From: Candidatus Kapaibacterium sp.
Lineage (GTDB): Bacteria > Bacteroidota > Ignavibacteria > Kapaibacteriales > UBA2268
NCBI GenBank assembly: GCA_963664875.1
Contig: OY761611.1
Location: 2,144,001 to 2,208,000 of the forward strand
Direction of reading: 5' to 3'
Length of the DNA stretch: 64,000 bases
Positions 5,813 through 49,686 of the stretch are shown here, piece after piece. Position numbers and translations under genes: made by a program. Positions within the stretch are counted from its first letter, which is position 1. Each line of letters opens with the position of its first letter. A model generated the notes under the pieces. The model had not been told where the DNA came from and did no database searches. It saw nothing but the letters and a program-made list of their open reading frames with translations.

Positions 5813-5824
5813 AGGAGAGAAGAG

Positions 5825-8570: not shown

Positions 8571-8581
8571 GAGATTCTTAT

Positions 8582-9958
8582 ATGTACGCTTCGCACATAG
8601 GGAAGAAATTCCTGCAATATTACAACAAAAAACATGGGACTAACTATTCTGCAAAGGAATACTTTATAAAAGTACATTGGCCTTTGTTTTACGATGACCC
8701 TAATTATTTACACTATTCAGGAAACGACCCTATCGGACAGTTGACTAAGCAAAAAGATGTAAATAATCAACCAAAACAAAACATAGAAATTGAAAGAAGA
8801 ACTGCATTAGAGAAGTTAACATTAAAACTTGACAAATATGATTCTTCTGAATTAAAGTTTCCAAATGCAGGTATGAGTGTGTCGTTTCCTGCGGAGAGCC
8901 TAATAGGAACAACTTCAGGTCAAATTACTTCCTTATATCCTAATTTTAGATCTGAAGACTTGTATCTAGATTGGATAGGAATTGCTTTTACCATTGGCAT
9001 TGCAGGTGGTATAAATATACTCATCGACGATGAACAAGTTTTCGAATTTTTGGAAGAAGGATTTTCAATCTATAGAGAATACATAAAAGAGACCCCTGAA
9101 ATAAAAAATAAGATTGAAACATGGAATGGCATTTGGCTGATGCACAGAACTTCCAAACATTATGATTCTGATAATCCAAGATATCAATTTAATCCTGTGT
9201 CATTCAAAAAAGATAATATTGAAATGACACGCATCACTTGGATACAAATCTACTTTATCTTTTCGGATATTTCGGATAACGAAATTGTAAATGCTTATGT
9301 CTTTTCATTAGGACAGATGAATAAAACCATCGGGTTTATCCAGTTTATCATAAAGGATGTTAAGAGACTATCTCATTTATATAAAGAATTATATTCAAAC
9401 AATGAAAGTCTCTTAAATAAAAAACTATCAATGATTTATGAGACCGAAAGAGGTTTCTATGTTACGTGTCAAAGTGGAGTTGTCGGTCTAAAACAACTCG
9501 AACCTAAAGACTTCAAAAAATTTATGCATCCGGGAGCAAATGGCACTTATCCCAAACCAAAGACAGATGAAAACTCACAAATCAGTTATTATATTTACAA
9601 ACTATGGATTGTTGCTATGTTAAATAACAAAGACATGTTAGAATTAGCTAAAGAATCTGCAAACGCCTTTAGAGACTTCACCAAGCTAATTAAGAGAGTG
9701 GGTACTGCAAAGGACACCATAATTTCAGCAATTCTCGAAGCTAAAAGTAAAAAGGCATTTGTTGATGCTATTAATGATTTATTAAGCTCGAAAGACTTCA
9801 AAGCAGAAGTGTTCATGGAGTTTGACGGGAATCCTTCTTTAGCTTCTGTTTTAGAAAAACTTGTTGAAGCAGCGATGTTAGACATTGCCACTGACAACTT
9901 ACCGTTATTCATTTCACTTTTAAAATTCGAATATCTAATCAATAACTTGGAGAAATAA
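8582..9958 (+). CDS. cas8: Cascade large subunit (Cas8b-like)
   Basis: 458 aa between cas3 and cas7; TTSGQIT motif and helical C-terminus. Assigned mainly by position. Confidence 0.65.
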   Translation: MYASHIGKKFLQYYNKKHGTNYSAKEYFIKVHWPLFYDDPNYLHYSGNDPIGQLTKQKDVNNQPKQNIEIERRTALEKLTLKLDKYDSSELKFPNAGMSVSFPAESLIGTTSGQITSLYPNFRSEDLYLDWIGIAFTIGIAGGINILIDDEQVFEFLEEGFSIYREYIKETPEIKNKIETWNGIWLMHRTSKHYDSDNPRYQFNPVSFKKDNIEMTRITWIQIYFIFSDISDNEIVNAYVFSLGQMNKTIGFIQFIIKDVKRLSHLYKELYSNNESLLNKKLSMIYETERGFYVTCQSGVVGLKQLEPKDFKKFMHPGANGTYPKPKTDENSQISYYIYKLWIVAMLNNKDMLELAKESANAFRDFTKLIKRVGTAKDTIISAILEAKSKKAFVDAINDLLSSKDFKAEVFMEFDGNPSLASVLEKLVEAAMLDIATDNLPLFISLLKFEYLINNLEK

Positions 9959-9959
9959 T

Positions 9960-11030
9960 ATGAAACAGGATTTTTTATATATCCGCGGCTTAAAACATGC
10001 AGATCATACTGTATTTGCAGTGACTGAAGGGCAAAAAAACTACTGGGACAATCAGTTTGACAGACGTGTTGCATACTCAAGTGGCCAACAAGTGAAAAGA
10101 CAAATTTTGGAAAATGTTCTCAGTTTTTTGGGTGAAGAACCTACTCCAATTACATTTTACTTCGAAAACAAAAGTAAAATGAAAGAGTTAGAAGTTACTT
10201 CACCTGCTAATCCAAAATACACAGACCAACTATTAGGGGGCTGGATGGTTGCAAAATCTAAAACTTCAAAAGATGCAGGCAGAACTGTAAAAAGAAGAAG
10301 TCCACTTTCAATATCTGCTATGCGACCTTTGCATCCTTTATTGAGTAATATTGATAGTGAAAATGTGTCCTTTGATAGAAGCGACAGACCTGATTTGCAT
10401 AAAGTAGTTGTTTATGAAGGTACAGCAGGAACAAAAGAGTTAACTTCCGAAGAAATTGCTGAAGCTCTTAGCGGCTCTGACAGAAGTTTACGTAGAAAAT
10501 GGATACAAGATAATAAAAGAACGAGCGGCTTATTTGTGTACGATATTTGTATTGACATGAGAACACTTTTTGCTGTTTCTTTGAGCGATACTGAGCCCGA
10601 ACTTACACCGGAAACAATTGAAGAATTACTAAATGAGGGTTGGGTAAAAAGTACAAACGCTTTTGGACCTTGTCTGATTGCACCAAAAAATATTAGAGAA
10701 AAGATTATTCCGGCACTTGCCAACTCAATTGTAAATTGGCGAATTGCTACAAATCAATCTCGTACATTTTCTCTTATGGAAACTCTTGCTATTGCAACAA
10801 GTGACAATGCTAATCAGCTTGCAGGTGCGATTAGAGCTCAACTCGTTCCTGAAGTGGAAAGACCAAAAGCCAAACCAATTATCGACGAAACGGCTAAAGC
10901 AGATATATTTGTTTCACTTCCATGTGATGGCTATATCGAAAATGCTCACGGCACTGCCAACGCCCTCGACGATGCCCAAGCTCACATCACTAAAATTCTT
11001 AGTGAGTATGACTATGAAAATCAAATGTAA
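9960..11030 (+). CDS. cas7: Cascade backbone Cas7
   Basis: SSGQQVKR, DQLLGGWM and RRSPLSISAMRP motifs. Confidence 0.85.
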   Translation: MKQDFLYIRGLKHADHTVFAVTEGQKNYWDNQFDRRVAYSSGQQVKRQILENVLSFLGEEPTPITFYFENKSKMKELEVTSPANPKYTDQLLGGWMVAKSKTSKDAGRTVKRRSPLSISAMRPLHPLLSNIDSENVSFDRSDRPDLHKVVVYEGTAGTKELTSEEIAEALSGSDRSLRRKWIQDNKRTSGLFVYDICIDMRTLFAVSLSDTEPELTPETIEELLNEGWVKSTNAFGPCLIAPKNIREKIIPALANSIVNWRIATNQSRTFSLMETLAIATSDNANQLAGAIRAQLVPEVERPKAKPIIDETAKADIFVSLPCDGYIENAHGTANALDDAQAHITKILSEYDYENQM

Positions 11031-11035
11031 CGCTT

Positions 11036-11551
11036 ATGTTTGATCAGATTTATAAATCGCTTTCCGCTACAGGCACTGAGATTAACTATTTCTTTGTCTG
11101 TAAGCGGAAGCTTTGGTACTCAGCTCATCAGATTAACTGCGAAAACGAAAGTGATAATGTAGCTGCCGGTAATCTTTTGCACTCTGCCTCCTACCAAAAT
11201 AAAAGAAAAGAATACCTTTTCGATAAAATCAAAATTGACTGGTTGGATCTGAAAAACGGAATCATCCACGAAGTCAAAAAGTCTGACAAAATGGAAGAGG
11301 CTCACCTCTGGCAGCTTAAATACTATCTGCACTATTTCCGAGAAAAAGGTATTGGCAACTTCACCGGCGAACTAAACTATCCTCTACAAAAAAGCAAACT
11401 CACGGTTTCACTCGAAGATGATGATATCCCTAAATTGGAAAAGCTGCTGGAGGATATAGAAGCCATAAAACTGCTCGAAACAGTGCCGCCTTTGCCTTCA
11501 AAGAAGTCAATTTGTAATAAGTGCGCATACTATGAGCTGTGCTATATCTAA
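11036..11551 (+). CDS. cas4: Cas4 exonuclease
   Basis: CKRKLW, KID, EVKK, QLKYY and C-terminal CxxCxYxxxC. Confidence 0.95.
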   Translation: MFDQIYKSLSATGTEINYFFVCKRKLWYSAHQINCENESDNVAAGNLLHSASYQNKRKEYLFDKIKIDWLDLKNGIIHEVKKSDKMEEAHLWQLKYYLHYFREKGIGNFTGELNYPLQKSKLTVSLEDDDIPKLEKLLEDIEAIKLLETVPPLPSKKSICNKCAYYELCYI

Positions 11552-11560
11552 GGGGAACTT

Positions 11561-12634
11561 ATGAAAAAAAATATGTTTATTTTTACTCCGGGGAAGCTAT
11601 CGAGAAAAGATAATACCGTTTTTTATATGCCGTTTGCGTTTCCTACAGAAGCGGATGACGAGCAGTTGCAGGAAGAAATACTGCTTTCTATCGATAGTGA
11701 GCAGCCGGAAACTAACAGAGGTAACAAAAAAGTGCTGCCTATTGCCGACATTGATTCATTTTATATTATGACCGAAGCAAGCTACAATACTAAGTTTTTA
11801 GAGTTTTGTTCACAAAATAGCATAAGTATCCATTACTTTAACCGATTCGGATTTTACTACGGCTCATTTATTGGCAAAAGCAAACTCCAAAGCGGATATG
11901 CCCTTGTGCATCAGGTAGAGCATTACAAAAACAAGAAAAAGCGTCTTGCCCTTGCAAAATCTTTTGTTCGAGGTGCCGCATTTAACATTAGTAAAAATCT
12001 GAAATACTACAACAATCGCGAAAAAGACATGAGTGCCCAGCTTGACACAATTGAGTCTGTGCTTTATGAAATAGACGAAGCACAGGATATTGAGCACATT
12101 ATGAATGTGGAAGGCAGGATTCGCAAAATATACTATACTGCTTATAACGAGATATTGTCGAATGGATTTAAGTTCGAGAGGCGAAAATACAATCCGCCGA
12201 CCGACCCGATAAATGCGATAATTTCATATTGCAATTCGCTTGTTTATACTACTTGTTTGTCCGAGCTTTATCACACCCAGTTAGAACCGACAGTCTCGTT
12301 CCTGCACCAACCAAGCGAAAGGCGTTACTCTTTAGCGCTGGACTTGGCAGAGATATTCAAGCCTCTTATAGCAGACAGAATGATGTTCAAACTCATCAAT
12401 CAGGGGCAGCTCAAGCTAAATGATTTTGAAAAAGACCTTAACTACTGCTATCTCAAAGAATCCGGCAGAAAGAAAATCACACAGGAATATGACAAACGAC
12501 TACAAAAAACTATCAAACACAGAGATCTAAACAGAAATGTATCCTATCGCCGGCTAATCCGACTCGAATGTTACAAGCTGATAAAACACATCACCGGCGA
12601 AAAAGAATATGTACCATTTAAGGCATGGTGGTAG
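11561..12634 (+). CDS. cas1: Cas1 (type I-B)
   Basis: LSRKDNT, EGRIRKIYY, NAIISY, FLH, SLALDLAEIFKP and PFKAWW terminus. Confidence 0.96.
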   Translation: MKKNMFIFTPGKLSRKDNTVFYMPFAFPTEADDEQLQEEILLSIDSEQPETNRGNKKVLPIADIDSFYIMTEASYNTKFLEFCSQNSISIHYFNRFGFYYGSFIGKSKLQSGYALVHQVEHYKNKKKRLALAKSFVRGAAFNISKNLKYYNNREKDMSAQLDTIESVLYEIDEAQDIEHIMNVEGRIRKIYYTAYNEILSNGFKFERRKYNPPTDPINAIISYCNSLVYTTCLSELYHTQLEPTVSFLHQPSERRYSLALDLAEIFKPLIADRMMFKLINQGQLKLNDFEKDLNYCYLKESGRKKITQEYDKRLQKTIKHRDLNRNVSYRRLIRLECYKLIKHITGEKEYVPFKAWW

Positions 12635-12635
12635 T

Positions 12636-12902
12636 ATGTATTACATAGTAGTTTACGACATCAACGAAAAGCGTGTCAATAAAATGCTGAAGCTATGTCG
12701 GCAGTATTTGCACTGGGTGCAAAATTCAACATTTGAAGGCGAACTGACACCGGTGCAAATGGCAGAATTAAAAATGCGAGCCAAGCAGATAATGATCAAT
12801 GAAGAAGACTCATTAATCATTTATAAAATACGCTCGGATAAGTACTTAGACAAAGAAATGATGGGCAAGGACAAGAGTGACTTGACTTCAAATTTCATAT
12901 AA
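12636..12902 (+). CDS. cas2: Cas2
   Basis: MYYIVVYDI...WVQNSTFEGELT; true start is the ATG at 12636. Confidence 0.95.
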   Translation: MYYIVVYDINEKRVNKMLKLCRQYLHWVQNSTFEGELTPVQMAELKMRAKQIMINEEDSLIIYKIRSDKYLDKEMMGKDKSDLTSNFI

Positions 12903-13124
12903 TTGGTCGTCGGGCTATAAAAATCCGGACATTTTTTCTCAAAAAACAGGAGACAAATCAACTTTGTTCTTTGACAACTTAGAAATAAAGGGAACATAGA
13001 GATAGTTGTCGCAGTCCCGAGGAAAAAGCAGAATAGCACATCGACAACAGGAGCAATCAAAAACGAATATAAAAAACGACGAAAATAGAAAATATTCGTA
13101 TATTTGCCTATGAAAATTGTCGGC
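12903..13124 (+). promoter_or_regulatory. CRISPR leader
   Basis: AT-rich non-coding segment between cas2 and the first repeat; degenerate repeats lie at the opposite end of the array. Confidence 0.8.
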
Positions 13125-16100
13125 CATCTAATCGCACCACTGTAGTATTGAAATGTTGCATTGTGTCTATGCCAAAGAATAGTGCCGATACATCTAATCG
13201 CACCACTGTAGTATTGAAATCATCACAAACGCAAAGCACAAGTTTATTGTTTTTTCATCTAATCGCACCACTGTAGTATTGAAATAAAATTTTAGCAAGT
13301 TTTTTTGAATAAATTGCGTATCATCTAATCGCACCACTGTAGTATTGAAATAATGTAGCAGAGTCTATTAAGTCGTTCGCTTCCTTTCATCTAATCGCAC
13401 CACTGTAGTATTGAAATGATATTTGCTCTCTAATAAAGTTAAATATGTTTACACATCTAATCGCACCACTGTAGTATTGAAATTTTTGTAATAATACCAT
13501 AGCGGCTCTAATTTGAGTACATCTAATCGCACCACTGTAGTATTGAAATAATAAAAACAGTTTATAGCTTGTTTATGTAGCTCGTCATCTAATCGCACCA
13601 CTGTAGTATTGAAATTCGATTGCTCCACCTTTCCAAAATCCTTTTGCATTTGCATCTAATCGCACCACTGTAGTATTGAAATAATAATTCTTATGTATTG
13701 TACCATATTTACGCAGTCGGCATCTAATCGCACCACTGTAGTATTGAAATACTGATAACTTATAAGCATTTAATACAGACGTTAATCATCTAATCGCACC
13801 ACTGTAGTATTGAAATTTAGGTTCTGAAATTCCATTACTTTCAGTAGATGTCATCTAATCGCACCACTGTAGTATTGAAATGTGAATTGTGAAATACTAT
13901 TAGTTATAGCTGTTAACATCTAATCGCACCACTGTAGTATTGAAATCTCGATAAACTCTATATCGGATAAGTCAAATATTGTCATCTAATCGCACCACTG
14001 TAGTATTGAAATTGCCAAACGTGGAATATACAACTTAGTCAATATCGGCATCTAATCGCACCACTGTAGTATTGAAATTCAAACCTTGCAACGCCTTGCA
14101 ATTTCAATTCAATTTCATCTAATCGCACCACTGTAGTATTGAAATCTAAGATTAACAAAGACGATGCACAATTAAACAGCGACATCTAATCGCACCACTG
14201 TAGTATTGAAATACGTATTCGTAAGCTAAAGTTAAATCTACTGTAACGTCATCTAATCGCACCACTGTAGTATTGAAATTTGGAGTTACAGTTAGATTCT
14301 CTGTCGTTGTTTGGCCATCTAATCGCACCACTGTAGTATTGAAATGTAAATAACAGAGCTATTCACTATCTCTACGAGCAACATCTAATCGCACCACTGT
14401 AGTATTGAAATCATGGGAAACTATATCATATCAGGAACAACTTGAAACATCTAATCGCACCACTGTAGTATTGAAATACTAAAATTATGATAGTAAGCTA
14501 TCTCTGCGGCGTTCATCTAATCGCACCACTGTAGTATTGAAATAGGAATTTCCCCGGCTACATATTTAATAATTCGTGACATCTAATCGCACCACTGTAG
14601 TATTGAAATTCAATACTCTGAAAAATGTCACAAGCTCTGAGTCAACATCTAATCGCACCACTGTAGTATTGAAATTTGCAAGGGCAATACCTTTAGCACG
14701 ATCATTGAAACATCTAATCGCACCACTGTAGTATTGAAATCATTTTGTTAAACAACATATTGATTCTAAAATTCCCGCATCTAATCGCACCACTGTAGTA
14801 TTGAAATGTGTTTTTTACAGTGCGATTGAAAGTATCAAATTCGCATCTAATCGCACCACTGTAGTATTGAAATTTTAATGGTTAGTTATGATATTAATAC
14901 TATCCTCAAACATCTAATCGCACCACTGTAGTATTGAAATGGCTGACGAGTCGTAGAGCTTGGGTCTTGAAACCTACATCTAATCGCACCACTGTAGTAT
15001 TGAAATCTGCATAAACGGCAGCCGCTGCAAGACCGCCCATTACATCTAATCGCACCACTGTAGTATTGAAATTGCGTTCGCTTTGTCAAAACCTACTGTT
15101 TTTATATCCATCTAATCGCACCACTGTAGTATTGAAATGTATGTAATCACTTAAATTAACTGATTTAATATTCCATCTAATCGCACCACTGTAGTATTGA
15201 AATCTCGAATATTGTTTTAGCCTTGATATTGCTCTTTGCATCTAATCGCACCACTGTAGTATTGAAATACCGCACAGGCAGCTACTCAAATTAGAGCTGC
15301 TATGGCATCTAATCGCACCACTGTAGTATTGAAATTCGACAACGGGGCGACGTGGCGTAAATTTGAAACGGCATCTAATCGCACCACTGTAGTATTGAAA
15401 TAAATCTAAAGCAAGCATCTCTAATTCAATATCATTGACATCTAATCGCACCACTGTAGTATTGAAATTATCAAATAGTTGCTACTGAAAAGATAATTGA
15501 AGAACATCTAATCGCACCACTGTAGTATTGAAATATTACTACAATGGCTATAAGTCAGACGACGGTAAACCCATCTAATCGCACCACTGTAGTATTGAAA
15601 TTGATGTAACATTAACTTTAGAGGGTACTGATAATGCATCTAATCGCACCACTGTAGTATTGAAATATAGTGCCTTATGCTATTCAAGCATTCAAAGATT
15701 ATCATCTAATCGCACCACTGTAGTATTGAAATCGATTGAGAATTACGTTATGATCGATAGCCGTTTGCCATCTAATCGCACCACTGTAGTATTGAAATGA
15801 TGTTAGAATTTCTTTAAAATCGGTATCGTATTCGCATCTAATCGCACCACTGTAGTATTGAAATGCTATTAAGTTATAATCTTGTGCTTTTGGAATTGCC
15901 ATCTAATCGCACCACTGTAGTATTGAAATTTAAAAACATCAGTAGAGGCATTAAGCGACGTTGTTCATCTAATCGCACCACTGTAGTATTGAAATTAATG
16001 CAAGATAATTACTATGTAGAAGCGCCAATTTCATCTAATCGCACCACTGTAGTATTGAAATATAGTTAGATATTCAAAAGGGCTTGCAATGGTAAGACAT

Positions 16101-19100
16101 CTAATCGCACCACTGTAGTATTGAAATTTTTGTGAAACAGCAAGCTCTAAAGACTTATTAACCATCTAATCGCACCACTGTAGTATTGAAATCAGTTCAA
16201 AGATTTCTTGCTCTGTCATATCTCGCATCATCTAATCGCACCACTGTAGTATTGAAATTTCGCAAGCAGAAAATCTTGCGGAGGGCTTTATTAGCATCTA
16301 ATCGCACCACTGTAGTATTGAAATTTGACTGCAATGTTTCGTTTGGTATGTATTCGAGGCATCTAATCGCACCACTGTAGTATTGAAATAATAATACGGA
16401 TAACACAGTAACTGACAATACTGATCATCTAATCGCACCACTGTAGTATTGAAATCCAAATAGCGTTTGGCTTCTCGCATCAACAAAACAACATCTAATC
16501 GCACCACTGTAGTATTGAAATTTTTCAAAAACTTTATTAGTGTAGAAGTCCCAAACTACATCTAATCGCACCACTGTAGTATTGAAATTATTAAAATAAA
16601 ATAATTGTATAATTCAAAACTTTTCATCTAATCGCACCACTGTAGTATTGAAATGAATTGTAATCATTTGTTACTAAAGTTTGATACAAACATCTAATCG
16701 CACCACTGTAGTATTGAAATATGAGTATAATCAGGCACTTGCAATCAGCGATAATGCATCTAATCGCACCACTGTAGTATTGAAATTAAGCCAAAAACAA
16801 GACCTATGACTAAAGAGGAAATCATCTAATCGCACCACTGTAGTATTGAAATACTAAATACATAGAAATTGGTTCTTTGGAATCTGACATCTAATCGCAC
16901 CACTGTAGTATTGAAATACCGACAGATAATAAATTATTTTATGATACTAAAGCCATCTAATCGCACCACTGTAGTATTGAAATCAGTACAACAATTAACT
17001 CTGTTAAAGCTATGGATAACATCTAATCGCACCACTGTAGTATTGAAATTTTTCAAAAACTTTATTAGTGTAGAAGTCCCAAACTCATCTAATCGCACCA
17101 CTGTAGTATTGAAATTTCTATCCTTAAAAGAATGAGCAAAAAGCCTATCCACATCTAATCGCACCACTGTAGTATTGAAATTATCTACTCGATTAAAAAC
17201 AATATTGTCCGTGTCAGCATCTAATCGCACCACTGTAGTATTGAAATGCTGGTGAAGCTATTATACCACTTGACAAGTTGCCAACATCTAATCGCACCAC
17301 TGTAGTATTGAAATTTCTGTTTATAAAATTAACTAACTTACTATCTTTGCATCTAATCGCACCACTGTAGTATTGAAATGATTATACTCATCGGTTTGCA
17401 AAAATCGTTCAATATCATCTAATCGCACCACTGTAGTATTGAAATCCAAAATATGATAGTCTTTGCCTGTAATCTTATTCATCATCTAATCGCACCACTG
17501 TAGTATTGAAATTTTATTTTCATAAATTACTAAACTCGGATTTCTATCCATCTAATCGCACCACTGTAGTATTGAAATCCATGAATGACAAAATCACAAT
17601 TTTCTTTATGGAAGCATCTAATCGCACCACTGTAGTATTGAAATATTTATGAAAAACATATCTGTTAGAAAAATATTCAAACATCTAATCGCACCACTGT
17701 AGTATTGAAATCTTGTATTAGTTCCTGTAAAGTTACCGAAAACTTGCCATCTAATCGCACCACTGTAGTATTGAAATTATGTTTGGAGTGCAAGAGCTTT
17801 GGACTTTAGCAAGCATCTAATCGCACCACTGTAGTATTGAAATTTAAATTCATAGCTAAAGATTTAGTTTTAGTGCCACATCTAATCGCACCACTGTAGT
17901 ATTGAAATTTGCAATAAGCGATGTAACAGACTTACAGTCAGAGCTTCATCTAATCGCACCACTGTAGTATTGAAATAACTTTAGCCAAAATTCAGGTCAA
18001 TATTATGATAATCATCTAATCGCACCACTGTAGTATTGAAATCCTGCTGGTTCGATAATGCTTGCACTTTCGGCAGGCATCTAATCGCACCACTGTAGTA
18101 TTGAAATCTTTGTATTTGATAACATTCAAAATAACACGAAGTAACATCTAATCGCACCACTGTAGTATTGAAATTCAAATTGTTGCGACTTAGTCAAAAC
18201 TCGCAATTCCATCTAATCGCACCACTGTAGTATTGAAATAAGTCAGGAGATTACTTAGTTTGGAATTACGGAAGTGCATCTAATCGCACCACTGTAGTAT
18301 TGAAATTATAGACCATCAGATGATGACGGATTAGTACCATTTCATCTAATCGCACCACTGTAGTATTGAAATCACGGTACACATACTATGGTGGCTCTCG
18401 CTTTAATCATCTAATCGCACCACTGTAGTATTGAAATTTAAATTTGCATTTAGCTTTGACTGCTCGCTTCCGCATCTAATCGCACCACTGTAGTATTGAA
18501 ATTTAATCAATGGCTTGTTAACTCGTATAGTTTCGAGCACATCTAATCGCACCACTGTAGTATTGAAATCGTAAGGTTTGCGGTTCATAAGTTTGAGTAC
18601 TTGAACCATCTAATCGCACCACTGTAGTATTGAAATGACACATATTATCAGATTATAGATGACGATGATTCTCATCTAATCGCACCACTGTAGTATTGAA
18701 ATTGCGGAATCGGTCCATATAAGAGCTATGACAGAATCCATCTAATCGCACCACTGTAGTATTGAAATAACGGTCGACGTTGGATATATTAAAGTCCAAT
18801 ACACCATCTAATCGCACCACTGTAGTATTGAAATAGATTTTGATTTATATTACGAAACAGCCGACACAGACATCTAATCGCACCACTGTAGTATTGAAAT
18901 GTAGTATTTTTACGTACTCTGTAATTTTGAGCCGCAACATCTAATCGCACCACTGTAGTATTGAAATAATATAAAAGTAATCGGATTTATAATTTTGTCT
19001 CCACATCTAATCGCACCACTGTAGTATTGAAATCTTGTTCAAAGAGCTGCATAACATTATAACCGTCCGCATCTAATCGCACCACTGTAGTATTGAAATG

Positions 19101-22100
19101 AACTAATACTTGACATTTTGCCCCTGATTTATCTGACATCTAATCGCACCACTGTAGTATTGAAATATGTTATCCTCACCTGTTTCAGCACCACCGATAT
19201 TGCCATCTAATCGCACCACTGTAGTATTGAAATATTGAACTTGTGCATAATTAGTATTTATCTTCTCTCATCTAATCGCACCACTGTAGTATTGAAATTA
19301 GAAAGGATTTAAAACGCAAACATTTGATAGAAAACATCTAATCGCACCACTGTAGTATTGAAATTTTTTTAAATTGTCATTAGTGCCGTCGGGTTGGTCG
19401 CATCTAATCGCACCACTGTAGTATTGAAATTAATAAATATCTAATCAATTTATAATCTTCTTTCTCAACATCTAATCGCACCACTGTAGTATTGAAATGA
19501 GCTTTGATATTTGTAGTCCGAAAGATTCATTTTTCATCTAATCGCACCACTGTAGTATTGAAATTTATTCATTGCTTTTAACATTGGACGGTACTTGTTA
19601 GCATCTAATCGCACCACTGTAGTATTGAAATTTGACTACGTTGTTCTCTTTACATATTCTAAATACCCATCTAATCGCACCACTGTAGTATTGAAATACA
19701 TTTGCCTATAACTATATGCAAAATGTTAGTCGTCATCTAATCGCACCACTGTAGTATTGAAATTTGCTATTTGCTTACACTTCTTACTAATTTTACTTAC
19801 ATCTAATCGCACCACTGTAGTATTGAAATTACTGAGTGCAATGTGGGAAATGACAGAGGCGGCAACATCTAATCGCACCACTGTAGTATTGAAATACAAT
19901 TAAAGCCGATTCAGCTTCAGGAATGCCCTGTCATCTAATCGCACCACTGTAGTATTGAAATAACTCAATTATAGACAATATGTTTGATTTCCAAAAACAT
20001 CTAATCGCACCACTGTAGTATTGAAATCGTTCTAAGGCTGCGATTATATTGCTGAATTGTTGCCATCTAATCGCACCACTGTAGTATTGAAATGCTACGA
20101 CAAATTATGTCGTAATGTTTACAATCCATCATCTAATCGCACCACTGTAGTATTGAAATACGCTACCCGTCACCGTGCAAATAGGGCGTTTGTATCATCT
20201 AATCGCACCACTGTAGTATTGAAATTAAAATTTTTTCAATAGGTCTCGTTCGGCAATATATCATCTAATCGCACCACTGTAGTATTGAAATAAGCTTACG
20301 AGGGCTCAATAACAGAATTAAGTCAAACATCTAATCGCACCACTGTAGTATTGAAATTCGTTCACGGCATCCATTACGACCTGCCCTTGCGACATCTAAT
20401 CGCACCACTGTAGTATTGAAATGCACAATACAGATATTCTTGTCGTGTTATAGCTATACATCTAATCGCACCACTGTAGTATTGAAATGAACGCGCGACG
20501 TTAACAAAAAACAGCTTCGTTGCCATCTAATCGCACCACTGTAGTATTGAAATTAAAGACCCAACAACGGGAGCAAATATCAAGTTCTGGCATCTAATCG
20601 CACCACTGTAGTATTGAAATTTTAACGATGCTCGTATAGTATCTATATGTAACTCTTCATCTAATCGCACCACTGTAGTATTGAAATCATTTGCTCACAT
20701 TTGGTTTGCTATTGTGCAGGCTCCATCTAATCGCACCACTGTAGTATTGAAATTTTTGATTATACTTTATTACTAAGTCGTAATATTGCATCTAATCGCA
20801 CCACTGTAGTATTGAAATTTTTTGAAAACAAGTATATAGTCAGGCTGAGCTGTCATCTAATCGCACCACTGTAGTATTGAAATGTAGAAGAAGCGTTGCA
20901 CTTAAATTGTCTGCTATGCATCTAATCGCACCACTGTAGTATTGAAATACAAGTAATGGATAAGAAAAAAGGAATATAGAATGACATCTAATCGCACCAC
21001 TGTAGTATTGAAATCTTGGCTCTACACAAGCCCCGGAAGAATACTATCCTCATCTAATCGCACCACTGTAGTATTGAAATCCTTTAATACCATGTAATTG
21101 ACTGGTTTATTTCAATCATCTAATCGCACCACTGTAGTATTGAAATGTAAAATTACCAAAAACTTGCACTACTCCTGCACTACATCTAATCGCACCACTG
21201 TAGTATTGAAATAAGTCTAAAATGCTTGCTTCCTGTATCGGTTTAATTGCATCTAATCACACCACTGTAGTATTGAAATTATGGTGGTGCTGGGGAAGTA
21301 TTTAAAGGTCAAGACATCTAATCGCACCACTGTAGTATTGAAATCACGCTTAAATATATAATTAACTTGTTAAACAAACACATCTAATCGCACCACTGTA
21401 GTATTGAAATCTTGGTAGTGGGGGGATATGGAGCGACTCGGCACAACATCTAATCGCACCACTGTAGTATTGAAATAAGAACACAATATCCGCTTGATGC
21501 AGGAAGAACTTTGCATCTAATCGCACCACTGTAGTATTGAAATTAAAGTACCCTCGCCTTTACGTGGGTTCGCACCCGCATCTAATCGCACCACTGTAGT
21601 ATTGAAATACCAAAGACACATAAAGAATGTAAATAAATTTCCACATCTAATCGCACCACTGTAGTATTGAAATTCAGCACTAAACAAGAAGTCAATAGTT
21701 GTCGTCCCGCATCTAATCGCACCACTGTAGTATTGAAATTAAGAACCGAATAGTAGTAAGATACCTAATACTATCCATCTAATCGCACCACTGTAGTATT
21801 GAAATGATACTATGCAACTGGGTAGCGTAACAGAGGTATTTGCATCTAATCGCACCACTGTAGTATTGAAATTATGGTGGTGCTGGGGAAGTATTTAAAG
21901 GTCAAGACATCTAATCGCACCACTGTAGTATTGAAATCACGCTTAAATATATAATTAACTTGTTAAACAAACACATCTAATCGCACCACTGTAGTATTGA
22001 AATCTTGGTAGTGGGGGGATATGGAGCGACTCGGCACAACATCTAATCGCACCACTGTAGTATTGAAAAATCAGTAGAATTGCAGATATTAAAAGAACGT

Positions 22101-25100
22101 ACTGACATCTAATCGCACCACTGTAGTATTGAAAAATGCCTATAATCTGGAACAGCTTGCTTAACTTCGTACATCTAATCGCACCACTGTAGTATTGAAA
22201 AATTGAGGCAACTGAATTAACGGACGACGGGACAAGTCATCTAATCGCACCACTGTAGTATTGAAAAATTGCAATATCAGATGTAACAGGCTTGCAGGGC
22301 GAGCCATCTAATCGCACCACTGTAGTATTGAAAAAAAATTCAAAACCTGAGCCGCCTCCGCCGCCCATTGCATCTAATCGCACCACTGTAGTATTGAAAA
22401 AAAGATAACATTAGTCATTTTTTTCATTTTAGAACTCCATCTAATCGCACCACTGTAGTATTGAAAACCAGCAGCAGCACTAACAATTCCAATCGGTTCG
22501 CAAGGCATCTAATCGCACCACTGTAGTATTGAAAACTTAGCTCTGCATAACTTGCAGCTCTATAACGCATCATCTAATCGCACCACTGTAGTATTGAAAA
22601 CCGCCTGCATTGCGTATCATCTGCCCCCGTGTACGACATCTAATCGCACCACTGTAGTATTGAAAACCGCCTGCATTGCGTATCATCTGCCCCCGTGTAC
22701 GACATCTAATCGCACCACTGTAGTATTGAAAAAAAGTATCAAACAATCCTGAAAACAAAGCTTGTACCATCTAATCGCACCACTGTAGTATTGAAAAAGG
22801 TCTAAATTTGCGTTTTTGGCTCTGATTACGCCACATCTAATCGCACCACTGTAGTATTGAAAAGTAATTTTAGTATTATCACCAGTACCGCCAGCTGTTC
22901 ATCTAATCGCACCACTGTAGTATTGAAAATTATAAGTAGATTTCCCTTGCGTTTCATAAAACAGACATCTAATCGCACCACTGTAGTATTGAAAATAAAT
23001 CCGAATATTTCAAGCCTACAAAGAACGAAAATCATCTAATCGCACCACTGTAGTATTGAAAACAATTAAATACTGATAATTCATTCCGTAAATAAACTTC
23101 ATCTAATCGCACCACTGTAGTATTGAAAATGCAATCCCATTGTAGAAACCACCGCACCAGTCATATCATCTAATCGCACCACTGTAGTATTGAAAATTGC
23201 TTATATGAGTTCCTTTGTAGTAAGTATCTACATCTAATCGCACCACTGTAGTATTGAAAACACTCTTAAAGATGAAGGCAAGGTAGCAATACCTGACATC
23301 TAATCGCACCACTGTAGTATTGAAAATTTTCGGCAACAGCACATACGGCAGAACTATCGTTCATCTAATCGCACCACTGTAGTATTGAAAATTGGATATC
23401 GTTATCAATATCATTCATAAAATCAGCCATCTAATCGCACCACTGTAGTATTGAAAACTAAGCTATCCAATGCCATTGCTTCGGATTCAAATTGCATCTA
23501 ATCGCACCACTGTAGTATTGAAAAAAAGAGTCTTTAAAGGCTACATATAAGCAAATGTTACATCTAATCGCACCACTGTAGTATTGAAAAAAATCAGCTG
23601 GAACCGGAAACTGAACACGCAAAAGCATCTAATCGCACCACTGTAGTATTGAAAACTGTTTATAATCAGCATGTTTTCTAATCTTTGTAAACATCTAATC
23701 GCACCACTGTAGTATTGAAAAAACCCTAAGAACTCCTTAACACCGTTTGCAATGTCCATCTAATCGCACCACTGTAGTATTGAAAACTGCAAATATTATT
23801 GATTACTTGCATCCAAAATCAGTCATCTAATCGCACCACTGTAGTATTGAAAATTTAAGTCAGCACAAATGATGTGTGATAAGCACGTACATCTAATCGC
23901 ACCACTGTAGTATTGAAAATATTCAAGATACAAGAATTATAGGAGCCCGTATATACATCTAATCGCACCACTGTAGTATTGAAAACAGGGTATAGGTGGG
24001 ATTGCTAACAGAATATATCACATCTAATCGCACCACTGTAGTATTGAAAAATTGTTCTTTAATTTTTGTATCTCTTTTAATCGAATCATCTAATCGCACC
24101 ACTGTAGTATTGAAAACACTAATCGGCAGCATAGTATCGACGTCTAACTCACATCTAATCGCACCACTGTAGTATTGAAAATGTTTTAATACTAAAGGGG
24201 GTAATCCATTATTATCTACATCTAATCGCACCACTGTAGTATTGAAAATCCATTATTGCATAATACAAATCTTCTTTGCTCATTCATCTAATCGCACCAC
24301 TGTAGTATTGAAAATGCATTATTTAGAAGTAATCCATGTTCAATATAACCCATCTAATCGCACCACTGTAGTATTGAAAAATTGTAGCTGCTGATGTGAT
24401 TGTGATTGACTGTAAAGCATCTAATCGCACCACTGTAGTATTGAAAAGTTAATGAATTGCCTAAAAGCCTATGCTCTTTATGCATCTAATCGCACCACTG
24501 TAGTATTGAAAAAGTTATACGAATTAGACGTTAATACAATGCTTCATACATCTAATCGCACCACTGTAGTATTGAAAACTCGTTATGAGTGAAACGGTAT
24601 ATGTGCCGGCTGGGCATCTAATCGCACCACTGTAGTATTGAAAAAACAAAAACACGGTTTTGTTCTTCAACAAATTGCACATCTAATCGCACCACTGTAG
24701 TATTGAAAACACCTAACTCGCCCGTGTTGTCATAGACTTGTTTGTCATCTAATCGCACCACTGTAGTATTGAAAAAAAAGTTATTTAGCTCACCGCCTGA
24801 CAAATTGCTACATCTAATCGCACCACTGTAGTATTGAAAAGGATTTGGCACGTACGCAATCAATTCAGATAACGAGGCATCTAATCGCACTACTGTAGTA
24901 TTGAAAAGCGTCTATTTCGTCTCTATGCCTAATTACTTTGTAGTCATCTAATCGCACCACTGTAGTATTGAAAAGCGAAAATCATTAGGCTCTTGAAGCA
25001 ATTTGATTTCACATCTAATCGCACCACTGTAGTATTGAAAAACGCAAAATGAATAACATCAAAGCACAAAGCGAGGGCATCTAATCGCACCACTGTAGTA

Positions 25101-28100
25101 TTGAAAATATAAACTCCAAACGTACTTTGTCAAACTCTTTCACCATCTAATCGCACCACTGTAGTATTGAAAATATAATCTATACGGATACTAATGAGCG
25201 ACGTATTTCATCTAATCGCACCACTGTAGTATTGAAAAGTTCTTTATGAACTATAACTAATTGATTGTTTTCAGCATCTAATCGCACCACTGTAGTATTG
25301 AAAAATTGGTGTTATATAGTAGGGGCGGCTAAGCCCCTATCATCTAATCGCACCACTGTAGTATTGAAAAGACATTGTGATAGGCTTTTTAAATTCTCTG
25401 CATTTCATCTAATCGCACCACTGTAGTATTGAAAAGAATCCCATGTTCGGGCCAATGGATTGTAAACGTTACGCATCTAATCGCACCACTATAGTATTGA
25501 AAACCAACAACAAGTGCATCTATTAAGTCGTTCGCTTCCTCATCTAATCGCACCACTGTAGTATTGAAAATATTCTGAAACATATTTTGCAATTTTTTTT
25601 AGTTTTCATCTAATCGCACCACTGTAGTATTGAAAATAATGAGAATGAAACATATTTTGATGAAGATACTTATGCATCTAATCGCACCACTGTAGTATTG
25701 AAAATTGACAATTTCCCCTGTATAAATAGCAGTTTTAGCCACATCTAATCGCACCACTGTAGTATTGAAAACCATTCAGCACTTTGTTTACATATTCTAA
25801 TTCAATTCATCTAATCGCACCACTGTAGTATTGAAAAGAAACATATAATGCTTTTATAGATTATATATATGCTTCATCTAATCGCACCACTGTAGTATTG
25901 AAAAGCTGATTTCGGAGCCGGCTATTACGTTCCTCGCTCCCATCTAATCGCACCACTGTAGTATTGAAAATTTTCTTTACCGATTCCACAGCTCTCACAC
26001 CCCCACATCTAATCGCACCACTGTAGTATTGAAAATAGCCGTAACAGAGTTAATTGTGGTGCTGTGGTCTCCATCTAATCGCACCACTGTAGTATTGAAA
26101 AAAAAAATGAGCACAAAAGTATTAAATCCAAATATTTCATCTAATCGCACCACTGTAGTATTGAAAATGCCGAGCAATTTATAACATTGACAGCCGACAC
26201 GACATCTAATCGCACCACTGTAGTATTGAAAATTGTGCAATATTCGTATAATAATAATCAGGTTCTTTTCATCTAATCGCACCACTGTAGTATTGAAAAT
26301 GAAACAGTGGTGTTTGAGGATGGTTCAAAACATCATCATCTAATCGCACCACTGTAGTATTGAAAAGATAAACTATAAAATTAGAATAACTACTTGCGTT
26401 CGCCATCTAATCGCACCACTGTAGTATTGAAAATGCACTTGAATTGAGCTGTCTGGGTGCTGATTGGCAGCATCTAATCGCACCACTGTAGTATTGAAAA
26501 CAAAGAACGGCTAAATCATTTAATATGGATTGCACTTCATCTAATCGCACCACTGTAGTATTGAAAACGATTAGCAACTGGTGGCATCGCTACGAGTGAT
26601 ACACATCTAATCGCACCACTGTAGTATTGAAAACATGAAATAATAAAATTGCATGAAAAATATGGCTTCCCATCTAATCGCACCACTGTAGTATTGAAAA
26701 AACGATATGACTTCCTTAAAGGTCAATTTGAGTATTACATCTAATCGCACCACTGTAGTATTGAAAAGTTTTTCAGTCAGTAGGCGGTGCAATCGGTGAA
26801 TTACATCTAATCGCACCACTGTAGTATTGAAAATGACTTCTAAGTTCAATAATCTTCAATGTAACTTTGTCATCTAATCGCACCACTGTAGTATTGAAAA
26901 ATCTATCTATTACATCTAATTGTAACGGATGTACGTGCATCTAATCGCACCACTGTAGTATTGAAAACCGGTTACGAGCTTAACAATTATATTGACTTAA
27001 AGGCATCTAATCGCACCACTGTAGTATTGAAAACCTTCTTGCTCAAATACCTGCTTAACTTCGTAACCGTCATCTAATCGCACCACTGTAGTATTGAAAA
27101 GTCTATTAGTGCCAAGTATTCAGAGTCACCGTACACATCTAATCGCACCACTGTAGTATTGAAAAAAATATCAGCAGGCTCTTTGTAGTCATCAATACCA
27201 AACATCTAATCGCACCACTGTAGTATTGAAAATATTTTTTAATATATGACTTTGCTTTTTGGTATAACACATCTAATCGCACCACTGTAGTATTGAAAAG
27301 TCATTTTCAATAGCCACTATATCCTGAGGTAATTTCATCTAATCGCACCACTGTAGTATTGAAAATTAGGCTGTCCATTAACACCTGAGCCTAAGAGCAA
27401 ACATCTAATCGCACCACTGTAGTATTGAAAATGTTTTTAAATCGAGTGAGTAAGTGAAACGTTCGTATCATCTAATCGCACCACTGTAGTATTGAAAATT
27501 GGAAGTTCAAAGTAAAGAGGTTGAATTTAAATTTCATCTAATCGCACCACTGTAGTATTGAAAATTTTGTAGAGCTGCCTGTATCGCTGTTACTATTCCC
27601 CATCTAATCGCACCACTGTAGTATTGAAAAACGTGCAGGGACTGCCAAACCGTCAAGTTTTGATTTCATCTAATCGCACCACTGTAGTATTGAAAATTAA
27701 TAATCGTTTCTAAATACATGCCATATTCTGCACCATCTAATCGCACCACTGTAGTATTGAAAATAGTATCAATAATACCTAAGACCGAGTCATACATGAC
27801 ATCTAATCGCACCACTGTAGTATTGAAAATATCTACTCATTTTGTAACTCCGATTGCTGTTGTTTGCATCTAATCGCACCACTGTAGTATTGAAAATTTG
27901 CAGGCATAGATATTTAGAGCCGAAAAAATGACATCTAATCGCACCACTGTAGTATTGAAAATTTAGTATATTTCTCTAACTTAACTATTATATCTTTCAT
28001 CTAATCGCACCACTGTAGTATTGAAAATTATCGGGCAGGTCGCCTGTATTTGATTGCCCTAAAACATCTAATCGCACCACTGTAGTATTGAAAACGGAAA

Positions 28101-29056
28101 TTTTATAGTATTGATCCTTTGATTACGTTGTCATCTAATCGCACCACTGTAGTATTGAAAAAAGGCTTGGAACGTGCGAGTATAACGAGATGTTTGGACA
28201 TCTAATCGCACCACTGTAGTATTGAAAATGAAGCAGACAGGCAGGCAGAAGAAGTAATATATACCATCTAATCGCACCACTGTAGTATTGAAAAGCTTGG
28301 AAGTTCGAAGATGCGTCATTATCGAGATGACATCTAATCGCACCACTGTAGTATTGAAAAGTTCCTGCCGTCCCTCCTCCTCGGAAATTTTATAGTACAT
28401 CTAATCGCACCACTGTAGTATTGAAAACCAACACGGAAAAGTCCAAGCTCGTTCGCTACCTGCCATCTAATCGCACCACTGTAGTATTGAAAATTATCAC
28501 TATTGACTGCATTCATAAGCTCTGAATAACATCTAATCGCACCACTGTAGTATTGAAAAACGAGCAGGAACTGCCAAACCGTCAAGTTTTGATTTAGCAT
28601 CTAATCGCACCACTGTAGTATTGAAAACTTCTATATCCTTAATACAATTTTCAACCGAAGCACATCTAATCGCACCACTGTAGTATTGAAAATTTTCTGT
28701 CTTAGCTTCACTTTCTAAGCTCTTGTGAACATCTAATCGCACCACTGTAGTATTGAAAAAAGAAATTTGGTAAAACTACTTTTTTATTGAACTCTCATCT
28801 AATCGCACCACTGTAGTATTGAAAGCTAATTTTTCGGCAATTTCCTGATTCGCTTCAAAAGCATCTAATCGCACCACTGTAGTATTGAAAGTTCATCACG
28901 TATAAGATTTTCAAAATAAATACAAAACATCTAATCGCACCACTGTAGTATTGAAAGGACCGACAACCGGGGTCGGTTTTGTTGTGGTTATATCATCTAA
29001 TCGCACCACTGTAGTATTGAAAGCAGCATTATGCCTTCAAAATTCCCCTCAAGAGG

Positions 29057-30248
29057 CAGGGATGATTTGTTCTTTGTAAATATCATATAATATAGTAAAT
29101 TATAGAAAGCCAAACACAAACTTTTCTAATCTGGGGGGATTTATGGAAAAGCAAACGTTAGTAAATTATCTTGATAAGTTGACAGATAAGCGTCGCAGGG
29201 AAGGCACACGCCATAATCAATCATTTGTATTATTGCTGGTTTTGATGGCGACTATGAGCGGACAATATGGCTATCGTGGCATAGAAAGATTTATAAAGAA
29301 GAATGCCGAAGACATACTGAAATATTTAAAGCCTCATAAAGATAGATTACCAACTTACGCAACAATTTTTAGAGTGGTAAATAATATAGATTTTGATGAA
29401 TTTGCACAGATTTTTAAAGAGTGGTCAAAAGTTTATGCAAAGCCTCAAAGCGGTGAAATAATCAGTATAGATGGCAAAGCTTTGAAAGGCACATTAGTAG
29501 AATACAATTCGAAATACCAGAACTTTATAAGCATTGTTTCTGCACATTCTCAATCAAGTAAAATGTCACTAAGTATAAGCAAATATGAGAATAAAAAATC
29601 AAGCGAGATAAGCGTAGTTGAAGAAATGATTAGAGATTTAGAACTGACTGGCGTAGTCTTTACAATGGATGCTTTACACTGTCAAAAAAACTCTAAGAAC
29701 AATTGTTAGTACTAACAACAACTATATTATTTGCGTAAAAAAGAATCAAGGTCGTTTGTACAAAGAACTGGAGAGTTTGAGTTCGAGCTGGTCAACAAAG
29801 ATCGATTATTATAAAACCGAAGAAACTAATAGAGACAGACGAGAAACTCGTAAAGTATATGTATATTCATTAAACGATAAAATTAAGAACGAGTGGTCCG
29901 GATCACAGCAATTAGTAAAGGTACAAAGGATTAGAAAAACAAAACAAATGCAGGAAGTTCATGTACATTATTATTTGAGCAGTCAAGAAAAACCAGCAAA
30001 GTATTATATGCAGAGCATACGAGGACATTGGGGCATTGAAAACCAGCTACATTGGGTAAAGGATGTGGTAATGAAAGAAGATGCTTGGAAAGTGAGAAAT
30101 ACACAAGCAGCTTCAGTCATGAGTATAATAAAGTCAATTTGTATCAATATTTTTAGGTCAAAGAAGCGTATTGATTGTACCAACTTTTTCTATGAGACTG
30201 CCGACAATGTAGAACTATTGGTGACTTTGTTAGAATGAATCAACCCTG
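29057..30248 (+). mobile_element. ISAs1-family insertion sequence inside a CRISPR spacer
   Basis: Terminal inverted repeats CAGGGATGATT...AATCAACCCTG; transposase motifs IDGKALKG, DALHCQK and HWGIENQLHW. Confidence 0.93.
29143..30238 (+). CDS. ISAs1 transposase split into two ORFs (29143-29709 and 29669-30238)
   Basis: The frame changes at the A7 run (29684-29690) in HCQK; either frameshifted expression or a pseudogene. Confidence 0.8.
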
Positions 30249-32394
30249 CCTCTTGAGGGGTGGCATCTAATCGCACCACTGTAGTATTGAAAGAATAGTT
30301 ACAAAGAGGGTACGGAGGAAAATGAGAGGCATCTAATCGCACCACTGTAGTATTGAAAGTGACTTCGAAGCTCAATAATTTTGAGTGTAACTTTACATCT
30401 AATCGCACCACTGTAGTATTGAAAGAAGCTTTTGATAATATTCTTAGGTCTAAGGTATGGCCATCTAATCGCACCACTGTAGTATTGAAAGTAATACGTG
30501 TATCTGGTAGCGTTCGTTATTGATTTCCATCTAATCGCACCACTGTAGTATTGAAAGGTGCCTGCGTTTCTAACAAGATTCTAAAATTCATTCATCTAAT
30601 CGCACCACTGTAGTATTGAAATACATTACCAAGTAGTGTTACTCGGTTTAGTGATTTTGCATCTAATCGCACCACTGTAGTATTGAAATTTGAATATCGT
30701 TATCAATGTCATTCATAAAGTCAGCCATCTAATCGCACCACTGTAGTATTGAAATCCGATGGCGTGAACTATGCTGCAGCTACTGGAAGCGACATCTAAT
30801 CGCACCACTGTAGTATTGAAATTACATCCTCGCCCGCGGTCTTGAAAGTTGCTGCAAGCATCTAATCGCACCACTGTAGTATTGAAATTACATCTTTTCA
30901 ACTGCAAGCGTTGCAACTGCAATGCATCTAATCGCACCACTGTAGTATTGAAATTAAGGCGGTGTAATATGGCAAGAACAATAATAGTTAACATCTAATC
31001 GCACCACTGTAGTATTGAAATTGGATTAACGGCAGGTCGTCTAAGTTAGATTTTGGTCATCTAATCGCACCACTGTAGTATTGAAATACAGTGAATTATT
31101 AGACAAAAAATACTTAGATAACGCATCTAATCGCACCACTGTAGTATTGAAATCAAGCTCCTAATCTAAATAGAAAGCTTTGGCTTGACATCTAATCGCA
31201 CCACTGTAGTATTGAAATACTAAGTGGCAAATATCACATGATAACTACACACACCATCTAATCGCACCACTGTAGTATTGAAATTATGCTTATAAGTATA
31301 AGACCAATTCTCAAGTATATCATCTAATCGCACCACTGTAGTATTGAAATAAAACTTGTACCACACCCTGTGAGTTGTTCGGTATGCATCTAATCGCACC
31401 ACTGTAGTATTGAAATTGGATTAACGGCAGGTCGTCTAAGTTAGATTTTGGTCATCTAATCGCACCACTGTAGTATTGAAATCTTTTTCCTCTAATAATT
31501 GAACTATCAAAGTGTCTTGCATCTAATCGCACCACTGTAGTATTGAAATTGATTTTATGGTAGGCAGATATTTGTTTATCAGTTCACATCTAATCGCACC
31601 ACTGTAGTATTGAAATAGCTAGCAACTATAAAAACACTTTTGCACAATTTGCCATCTAATCGCACCACTGTAGTATTGAAATGATCATGAAGATATAGCC
31701 GCATATATCGAATACACCCATCTAATCGCACCACTGTAGTATTGAAATTAATCAGCACCAACTGTAAATACTATCTCATTGCCTTCATCTAATCGCACCA
31801 CTGTAGTATTGAAATGACTTGTCTTTATCTATTGATTCAAGTATAAAGCAATCATCTAATCGCACCACTGTAGTATTGAAATTCCAATACACATCGCTGT
31901 TATCAACTTCTTCTTTTAACATCTAATCGCACCACTGTAGTATTGAAATACAAATACGGTCTATTTAGTAGCTGTAAGAGTCGCTGCATCTAATCGCACC
32001 ACTGTAGTATTGAAATTTTCAAGATGTAGATTTAGATACAAAAACTATTTCATCATCTAATCGCACCACTGTAGTATTGAAATTTTTGAGCAAGATTTGT
32101 CCCCATAGAGTTTCATTTTCATCTAATCGCACCACTGTAGTATTGAAATATAGATTTGATTAGTATATTTAACCTTGCTCACTTCCATCTAATCGCACCA
32201 CTGTAGTATTGAAAGGACTGCAATTTTACATTTAGGCTATACGAAACAAAAAGCTCTAATCGCACCACTATAGTATTGAAATCCGAATTTTTCGGCAAGT
32301 TGCTGAGCTTTTCCGCCACATCTAATCGCACCACTGTAGTATTGAAATATAATAGCGATATTAAAAAGAAATCCCCGGATAATGCATCTAATCG

Positions 32395-42488: not shown

Positions 42489-42561
42489 GCCAACGTAGCT
42501 CAGCTGGTAGAGCAGCTGATTTGTAATCAGCCGGTCGGCGGTTCGACTCCGTTCGTTGGCT
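42489..42561 (+). tRNA. tRNA-Thr(TGT) copy 1
   Basis: Acceptor stem GCCAACG/CGTTGGC; anticodon arm GCTGA-TTTGTAA-TCAGC. Confidence 0.95.
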
Positions 42562-49398: not shown

Positions 49399-49686
49399 AC
49401 ACCCCGTCACGTCTTCGACGTGCCAGAGGCTGTCTCAGAAGTCAAAATGTGCTCTGTATAAATGTAGAATCATTTTTCCACCCCGTCATGCTTCGCATGC
49501 CACCCCTCAAGAGGGGAATTTGTAAACACCTCAAATAAAAGCAGTTATAATACAATGTAGCACTATTGTAGTTGTTGAATTATAAATATCTTAAATTGAT
49601 TACAAGACAGCCTCAATTTTGATTCCCCTTCTTGGGAAGAAGGGGTGCCCGAAGGGCGAGGCGATGCACTGAGCTTGCCGAAGTGT
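49399..49686. repeat. cluster of REP-like palindromes with a MITE-like segment
   Basis: CACCCCGTCA..TGCCA at 49400 and 49479; CCCCTCAAGAGGGG at 49503-49516; inverted repeats GAGGCTGTCT (49426) and AGACAGCCTC (49605-49614); CCCCTTCTT-ggg-AAGAAGGGG; CTGAGCTTGCCGAAG. Confidence 0.7.

Follow-up and report, generated by a model that had tools for sequence, protein, structure and literature searches.

Probable transposition of a target-selective ISAs1-family insertion sequence into a palindrome within an old CRISPR spacer of Candidatus Kapaibacterium sp.

We analysed a stretch of 64,000 nucleotides from Candidatus Kapaibacterium sp. (hereafter the window; positions 2144001-2208000 of contig C1), which contains a type I CRISPR-Cas locus whose array, array 1, is interrupted by an insertion sequence (IS) of the ISAs1 family. 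The window belongs to a single-contig genome of 3.83 Mb and 36% GC, labelled G000; two genomes of the same genus, the congeners G001 and G004, also enter the analysis. We propose that the IS, which is selective for sequence, transposed recently into a repetitive extragenic palindromic (REP) element lying within an old captured spacer, spacer 241, and we give this reading a probability of about 0.8. It draws on three observations, namely the anatomy of the split spacer, the identity of part of that spacer with a REP and the site preference of the IS in two genomes.

The gap between repeats 241 and 242 of array 1, at positions 29024-30263, measured 1240 nt. The first-pass annotation of the window had read it as an IS lodged in a spacer, and that description held: the insertion physically splits spacer 241, and excising the IS together with one flanking 10-mer restored a spacer of 38 nt, which is within the range of the array (34-38 nt), at its top. 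The 271 spacers other than spacer 241 had lengths of 34 nt (1 spacer), 35 nt (46), 36 nt (145), 37 nt (72) and 38 nt (7). The same annotation had described a 10-bp duplication at the insertion site; the size was right, and the duplication is not exact, the left copy (CCTCAAGAGG) and the right copy (CCTCTTGAGG) agreeing at 8/10 positions and differing at the centre, AA versus TT. The two 10-mers are reverse complements of each other, a relationship previously masked by writing the centre as 'NN'. When the right-hand 10-mer is used, the 22 nt that end the spacer, together with CAT from the next repeat, were exactly the reverse complement of positions 49497-49521, the segment of an intergenic REP with which the spacer had originally been compared. 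An identity of 25 nt is too long to have arisen by chance within 64 kb, and part of the spacer is derived from a REP. Its first 16 nt, already reported not to match the REP copy in the window, had no match anywhere else in the 3.83-Mb genome.

The REP was indeed a repeated element, as had been supposed. In the genome, 16 copies of its 14-nt palindrome, CCCCTCAAGAGGGG, were intact and 4 more were interrupted by the IS, all of them in one asymmetric context (...GCCA, palindrome, AAT...). The REP unit is predicted to fold into two hairpins, and its copy number is low for a classical REP. A REP 20-mer, allowing at most 1 mismatch, was found in 9/41 genomes, G000 included, and hence in 8/40 other relatives. 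G024, of another genus, had 23 copies, and two genomes from other families, G030 and G033, had 11 and 6.

To the single IS copy in the window the whole genome added six more. All seven were 1192 bp long; six were identical and one had 5 differences. When the flanks of all copies were compared, 4/7, namely the one in the window and three at genome positions 2078469, 2086512 and 2592041, were found to interrupt CCCCTCAAGAGGGG at an identical point, in agreement with the earlier proposal that this IS targets REPs. Two of the remaining copies lay in the repeats of a second array, array 2, where the duplication is CTGCTATAAG, followed by GGG, and the last lay at CCTGAATGGG, followed by GG. Four of seven insertions in about 20 palindrome sites of a 3.83-Mb genome are far beyond chance (rough estimate below 1e-15). 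The target duplication was perfect in 4/7 copies, carried 1 mismatch in 1/7 and carried 2 central mismatches in 2/7, the window copy among them. Because the three non-REP copies have perfect 10-bp duplications right at CAGGG/CCCTG, they establish where the IS ends on either side and how long the duplication is. For the same reason we rejected the idea that the true ends of the IS include CCTCAAGAGG. The use of non-REP sites by 3/7 copies is all that speaks for a coincidence, in which the IS would have inserted at random into a spacer that merely looks like a REP; with an exact REP identity of 25 nt and a position in the palindrome that is the same as in 3 other copies, we give such a coincidence hardly any credence.

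The same preference was seen in the congener G001, for which 9 copies of an 81%-identical IS were listed. Five of these 9 lay in REP-like CCCCT..AGGGG palindromes with the flanks GCCA and AATT, three of them without any change of register and the other two displaced by 1 bp; another lay at a similar non-REP site, CCATTAGAGG, followed by GG; and three had no duplication and look like recombinants between copies. The element and its relative in G001 both behave as REP-targeting ISs (4/7 copies in G000 and 5/9 listed copies in G001). At all non-palindromic sites of the two genomes, the G run was found on the side of the right end of the IS. The transposase may read a motif near C-Y-N6-R-G and then GG, which resembles the element's own abutted termini (CCCTG, CAGGG), and such a motif would make the palindrome usable in either orientation. 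In the mechanism that we propose, the IS would insert at a fixed position in CC-CCTCWWGAGG-GG palindromes, with the G run always on the right side. Capture of spacer 241 from DNA carrying a REP copy would have created one more target site inside array 1, into whose palindrome the IS would then have transposed, and the same preference would have put two further copies into the repeats of array 2. As a separate observation, the copies at 2078469 and 2086512 are about 7 kb apart and share one repeated context of REP plus flank, towards which they are oppositely oriented; this context occurs at least four times within 33 kb, including the REP copies at 2056692 and 2089148, a pattern suggestive of duplication or rearrangement in this region.

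Some observations weigh against transposition into spacer 241 as described here. The 10-mers at the window IS differ centrally, the same AA/TT pair occurs in the only other copy of the same orientation relative to its REP (2078469), and plain transposition predicts neither. The source protospacer was not found in the collections searched, which are named below, and capture from a REP copy elsewhere is what we infer. Finally, an empty site, that is, spacer 241 without the IS, was not found: the short-read contigs of four runs break at the repeats, showing IS junctions with other genomic sites that are uninformative for spacer 241, and the array of the congener G004, whose repeat is identical to that of array 1, did not provide one either (0/133 spacers in common).

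Both orientations of the palindrome are in use among the four REP-borne copies. In the orientation of the IS, the 10 bp at the left end were CCTCAAGAGG in three of them and ACTCAAGAGG in the fourth, the older copy, whichever way the REP faces, and the 10 bp at the right end followed the local orientation of the REP. Both 'reverse' copies, in the window and at 2078469, carry AA in the left 10-mer and TT in the right one. Since the TT version is also joined to the flank of the 2078469 copy in short-read contigs of other runs, the pair is no assembly slip there. Two candidate causes may be put forward. In one, gene conversion between identical IS copies would extend into the adjoining REP flanks, which are nearly identical; in the other, the left end would bear a 10-nt flap from the donor, annealing to the gapped target where that is a REP as well. 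The latter, in which the IS may carry 10 nt of its donor into the new site, is a weaker novel reading than the one given below for array 2, and it found no support in G001, whose one 'reverse' REP copy has a perfect duplication. How ISAs1 elements transpose is poorly known, and a donor flap, if true, would be a first clue to how they move.

The AA/TT pair also bears on an alternative in which the IS did not transpose into the spacer: recombination or gene conversion, acting through the short stretch of REP homology, would have copied the IS and its REP half-sites from 2078469 into a REP-bearing spacer. From ATTCCCCTC at the left to GAGGGGTG at the right, the window and 2078469 copies show 100% identity, the AA/TT pair included. 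However, only 15 and 14 nt of homology flank the IS, less than efficient homologous recombination needs; two independent hits in one palindrome are expected to leave identity of equal length; and a conversion starting inside the identical IS and running into the REP flank would explain the AA without moving the IS. We consider copying from 2078469 unlikely, and transposition into the palindrome of spacer 241 remains our preferred account.

The first-pass annotation had gone further and proposed that the array captured a REP of its own host, at the risk of autoimmunity. On this alternative, the insertion was selected because it destroyed a self-targeting spacer. Although 22 nt of spacer 241 match 16 chromosomal REP copies, and it is generally known that IS insertions can relieve CRISPR self-targeting, the claim was not supported by a search of the genome with the full 38-mer, in which the best self match was 29/38, at a REP copy, with the first 16 nt unique to the array. 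A full or near-full chromosomal match that includes the seed next to the protospacer adjacent motif (PAM), by which a self-targeting spacer is recognized, was thus not found. In type I systems the leader-side end of the spacer adjoins the PAM and holds the seed; the unmatched 16 nt lie at this end, which would make the 16 REP copies poor targets. The age of the spacer points the same way. Degenerate repeats at the right end of array 1 indicate that its leader is on the left, that spacers enter from the left and that transcription runs from left to right, so that spacer 241 of 272 is old; since the IS is identical to five others, the intact spacer was tolerated while about 240 further spacers were acquired. 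A full self match in the genome was likewise absent for all of the other 323 spacers of both arrays (best 23/24 nt). Moreover, with the REP 20-mer present in 8/40 other relatives, some of other genera and families, a foreign source is at least as likely. We regard selection for the loss of a self-targeting spacer as quite improbable.

Spacer 241 was probably never a serious self-targeting hazard, and target preference alone would explain the insertion, with no need for selection. The source of the spacer would be DNA absent from the present genome, for example that of a relative or of a mobile element with the same REP. A 27-nt query from the left of the spacer gave no exact match in IMG/VR, the GTDB species genomes or the JGI metagenomes, nor did it match any of 129 other genomes of the family when up to 3 mismatches were allowed. 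The whole of array 1 gave no match to phage or plasmid records by megablast, so a PAM could not be derived from it.

Since the insertion takes the downstream repeat 1.2 kb away, spacer 241 would be expected to yield no mature CRISPR RNA (crRNA). The transposase gene is co-oriented with array 1, and the IS lies between the leader and the last 32 spacers, whose transcription it may alter, as the first-pass annotation had supposed. A consensus promoter scan of the IS found promoter-like sites no more often than in shuffled sequence, a terminator scan found none inside it, and among the 8 sequencing runs listed as matches none is on record as RNA. Spacer 240 (28954-28993), just before the IS-bearing spacer, contains a terminator-like hairpin and a T run, which could be due to chance. 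If the IS arrived as we propose, the landing site of a site-specific IS can enter a CRISPR array as an ordinary spacer, and the array can forfeit some of its memory in consequence; the storage of foreign DNA then has a cost, small but concrete.

Table 1. Positions of the features discussed. Positions refer to the window unless marked as genome positions; nt, nucleotides; aa, amino acids; ORF, open reading frame.
Feature	Position	Strand	Details
cas operon, type I	5156..12902	+	cas6, 204-aa ORF, cas3, 458-aa ORF, 356-aa Cas7/DevR-like ORF, cas4, cas1, cas2; Pfam and NCBIfam matches
Array 1 leader, 222 nt	12903..13124	+	GAAAAT 7 nt before first repeat
CRISPR array 1	13125..32394	+	273 repeats of 30 nt plus truncated last repeat; 272 spacers
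Repeat 241	28994..29023	+	
Spacer 241, left part, 23 nt	29024..29046	+	First 16 nt unique in genome; REP-derived from 29040
Left copy of 10-bp target duplication	29047..29056	+	CCTCAAGAGG; centre AA, where TT expected
ISAs1-family IS, 1192 bp	29057..30248	+	Identical to five other genomic copies
Left terminal inverted repeat	29057..29073	+	Starts CAGGGATGATT
Transposase ORF1, 188 aa	29143..29709	+	ISAs1 profile positions 1-151
Transposase ORF2, 189 aa, +1 frame	29669..30238	+	ISAs1 profile positions 148-314
A7 run at frame change	29684..29690	+	Putative conserved recoding site
Right terminal inverted repeat	30232..30248	+	Ends AATCAACCCTG
Right copy of 10-bp target duplication	30249..30258	+	CCTCTTGAGG
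Spacer 241, last 5 nt	30259..30263	+	GGTGG
Repeat 242	30264-30293	+	
32 distal repeat-spacer units beyond IS	30264..32394	+	Count includes spacer before truncated last repeat
Intergenic REP unit	49478..49521	+	CCACCCCG box, first hairpin, then CCCCTCAAGAGGGG hairpin, AATTT
Array 2 cas genes, type I-B	genome 1381865-1388494		cas6, cas8b, cas7, cas5, cas3; without cas4, cas1, cas2
Array 2	genome 1388621-1394490		Different 30-nt repeat, directly after its cas genes; loci L018, L012, L010; outside window

The assignment of the element to the ISAs1 family, first made by inspection, was confirmed by profile searches. Both ORFs pass the NCBIfam ISAs1 model NF033564 (122.7 bits for ORF1 and 141.4 bits for ORF2; cut-off 70), whose 314 positions they cover jointly as given in Table 1, and Pfam places DDE_Tnp_1_assoc (PF13808) in ORF1 and DDE_Tnp_1 (PF01609) in ORF2. 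As described in ISfinder, ISAs1 elements have terminal inverted repeats that begin CAGGG and a length of about 1.2-1.5 kb; here the ends were CAGGGATGATT... and ...AATCAACCCTG, and the length 1192 bp, in 7/7 copies. The duplication of 10 bp agrees with the 8-10 bp or so of the family. Members of the family are described as having one long transposase ORF. The present element departs from this, with two ORFs in 7/7 copies of G000 and in 9/9 listed copies of G001.

The ORF is split at TGTCAAAAAAACTC, which contains a run of seven A residues (A7), in all 7 copies of G000 and all 9 of G001 (loci L002-L017). Five distant homologues with 33-45% identity (L038, L042, L051, L063 and L100) have a run of eight (A8) at the same DALHCQKK codons, with the remainder of the protein in the -1 frame; such an A8 run is a classical A_AAA_AAA slippery site. 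From these sequences, the split looks like conserved recoding in an ISAs1 subgroup and not like decay. The A7 version would need a shift of +1 or -2, or the loss of one A in the mRNA. A literature search on frameshifting in ISAs1 elements returned nothing useful.

IS elements have reportedly been found inside CRISPR arrays or cas genes elsewhere, for example in Xanthomonas citri, E. coli and Sulfolobus. Compared with such interrupted arrays, the landing site here is the target motif of the IS itself, situated in a spacer and, for array 2, in a repeat. REP targeting has a precedent within the family. ISPlr1 of Planktothrix rubescens is classed as ISAs1 (PMC9366434), and the accessible text of PMC4766695 gives it the inverted repeat CAGGGCTG... 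and 10-bp direct repeats and places it only in REP-like palindromic repeats. Our element resembles ISPlr1 as portrayed there in having ends that begin CAGGG, 10-bp direct repeats and GC-rich, REP-like palindromic targets (PMC4766695). It differs in length (1192 bp, compared with 1423 bp for ISPlr1), the host of ISPlr1 is a cyanobacterium and its palindrome has another sequence, and the accessible text describes no insertion into a CRISPR array. In view of ISPlr1, REP targeting by an ISAs1 element is already known in kind and the present element is a new case of it, the second and independent case of palindrome or REP targeting in this family, with a usable target consensus.

Outside ISAs1, the REP-targeting elements named in the accessible text of a 2006 survey include IS1397 and ISKpn1 (IS3), IS621, ISPpu9, ISPpu10 and ISPa11 (IS110) and ISRm22 (IS4); five REP-targeting families are distinguished there (IS3, IS110, IS4, IS256 and IS5), and the name 'ISAs1' appears 0 times in that text (PMC1525189). 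Our element is like those covered by the survey in that most or all copies sit at a fixed place in a REP of the host, whereas transposase chemistry and the lengths of the target duplications differ from those of the other families.

The insertions into array 2 left a fuller record. Both IS copies split the repeats of this array at the same position. On the leader side of the first, we found nine complete 30-nt hybrid repeats, each with a different spacer of 35-38 nt, which consist of the first 20 nt of the repeat and the first 10 nt of the IS (its left end); a tenth hybrid repeat forms the junction with the full IS. Only repeated integration with duplication of the leader-proximal 'repeat' yields nine hybrids, indicating that adaptation continued after the IS hit. 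Furthermore, since the hybrids stay at 30 nt, the far cut was made 30 nt from the leader junction, inside the IS, and would have been set by distance and not by sequence. A comparable ruler has been described for the type I-B system of Haloarcula hispanica, where, in the accessible text of PMC4872114, the 30-bp repeat duplication starts at the leader-repeat junction and ends, independently of sequence, at a set distance from a mid-repeat motif. The hybrids of array 2, with 20 nt of repeat and 10 nt of IS, fit that ruler model as it is presented there; unlike the H. hispanica work, which was laboratory mutagenesis in an archaeon, the hybrids are natural, bacterial and made by an IS.

The adaptation genes may come from the array 1 locus. 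The cas1 gene of the window is the only one in G000, where PF01867 matched just once genome-wide. The leaders of array 1 (window 12985-13124), array 2 (L018 18482-18621) and the G004 array (L112 4037-4176) have GTYGTC and CGACRAC boxes in common, and GAAAAT stands 6-7 nt before the first repeat in all three, with the repeats of arrays 1 and 2 being unrelated. These features fit, without proving, a single cas1-cas2-cas4 set at the array 1 locus that serves array 2 in trans via the common leader motif. Another candidate motif, TTGTTCTTTG, common to the IS end and both leaders, was dropped on account of its 30 occurrences in the genome. The hybrid repeat is without the last 10 nt of the normal repeat and its predicted fold differs, and the nine spacers acquired after the hit may yield no working crRNAs. 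We lean, by a little, towards the view that the IS disables arrays repeatedly and that array 2 records the ruler-set, trans-served uptake of nine probably unusable spacers.

The 30-mer of the hybrid repeat had no match in metagenome contigs, and no natural hybrid or chimeric repeat made by an IS was found in the literature searched, whose coverage left out most subscription journals. The hybrid repeats of array 2 amount to a natural test of the ruler model and point to adaptation in trans between arrays with different repeats. The event at spacer 241 is tidy but fairly ordinary; the record in array 2 and the conserved recoding site are more interesting.

The cas genes of the window place its CRISPR-Cas system in type I, putatively I-B-like, with cas3, cas6, a cas7-like gene, cas4, cas1 and cas2 adjoining a leader and repeat array. 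The 204-aa and 458-aa ORFs of the operon had no family match in Pfam or NCBIfam. Base 30 of the array 1 repeat varies in blocks which, counted from the leader, read T (135 repeats), A (102), G (9), T (24), G (1) and T (2), and these blocks look like the fossil trace of changes that arose one after another in the leader-proximal repeat and were passed on to all repeats added later. In the G004 array, base 30 was T in all 134 repeats. Just upstream of the cas operon, at 1542-4187 on the minus strand, lie two tyrosine-integrase genes with Arm-DNA-binding domains, and the CRISPR-Cas locus may be on an integrated element. Elsewhere in the window, positions 42489-43025 hold about 4.6 tandem, near-identical units of 115 bp, each with a tRNA-like sequence that, by eye, corresponds to Thr with the anticodon TGT.

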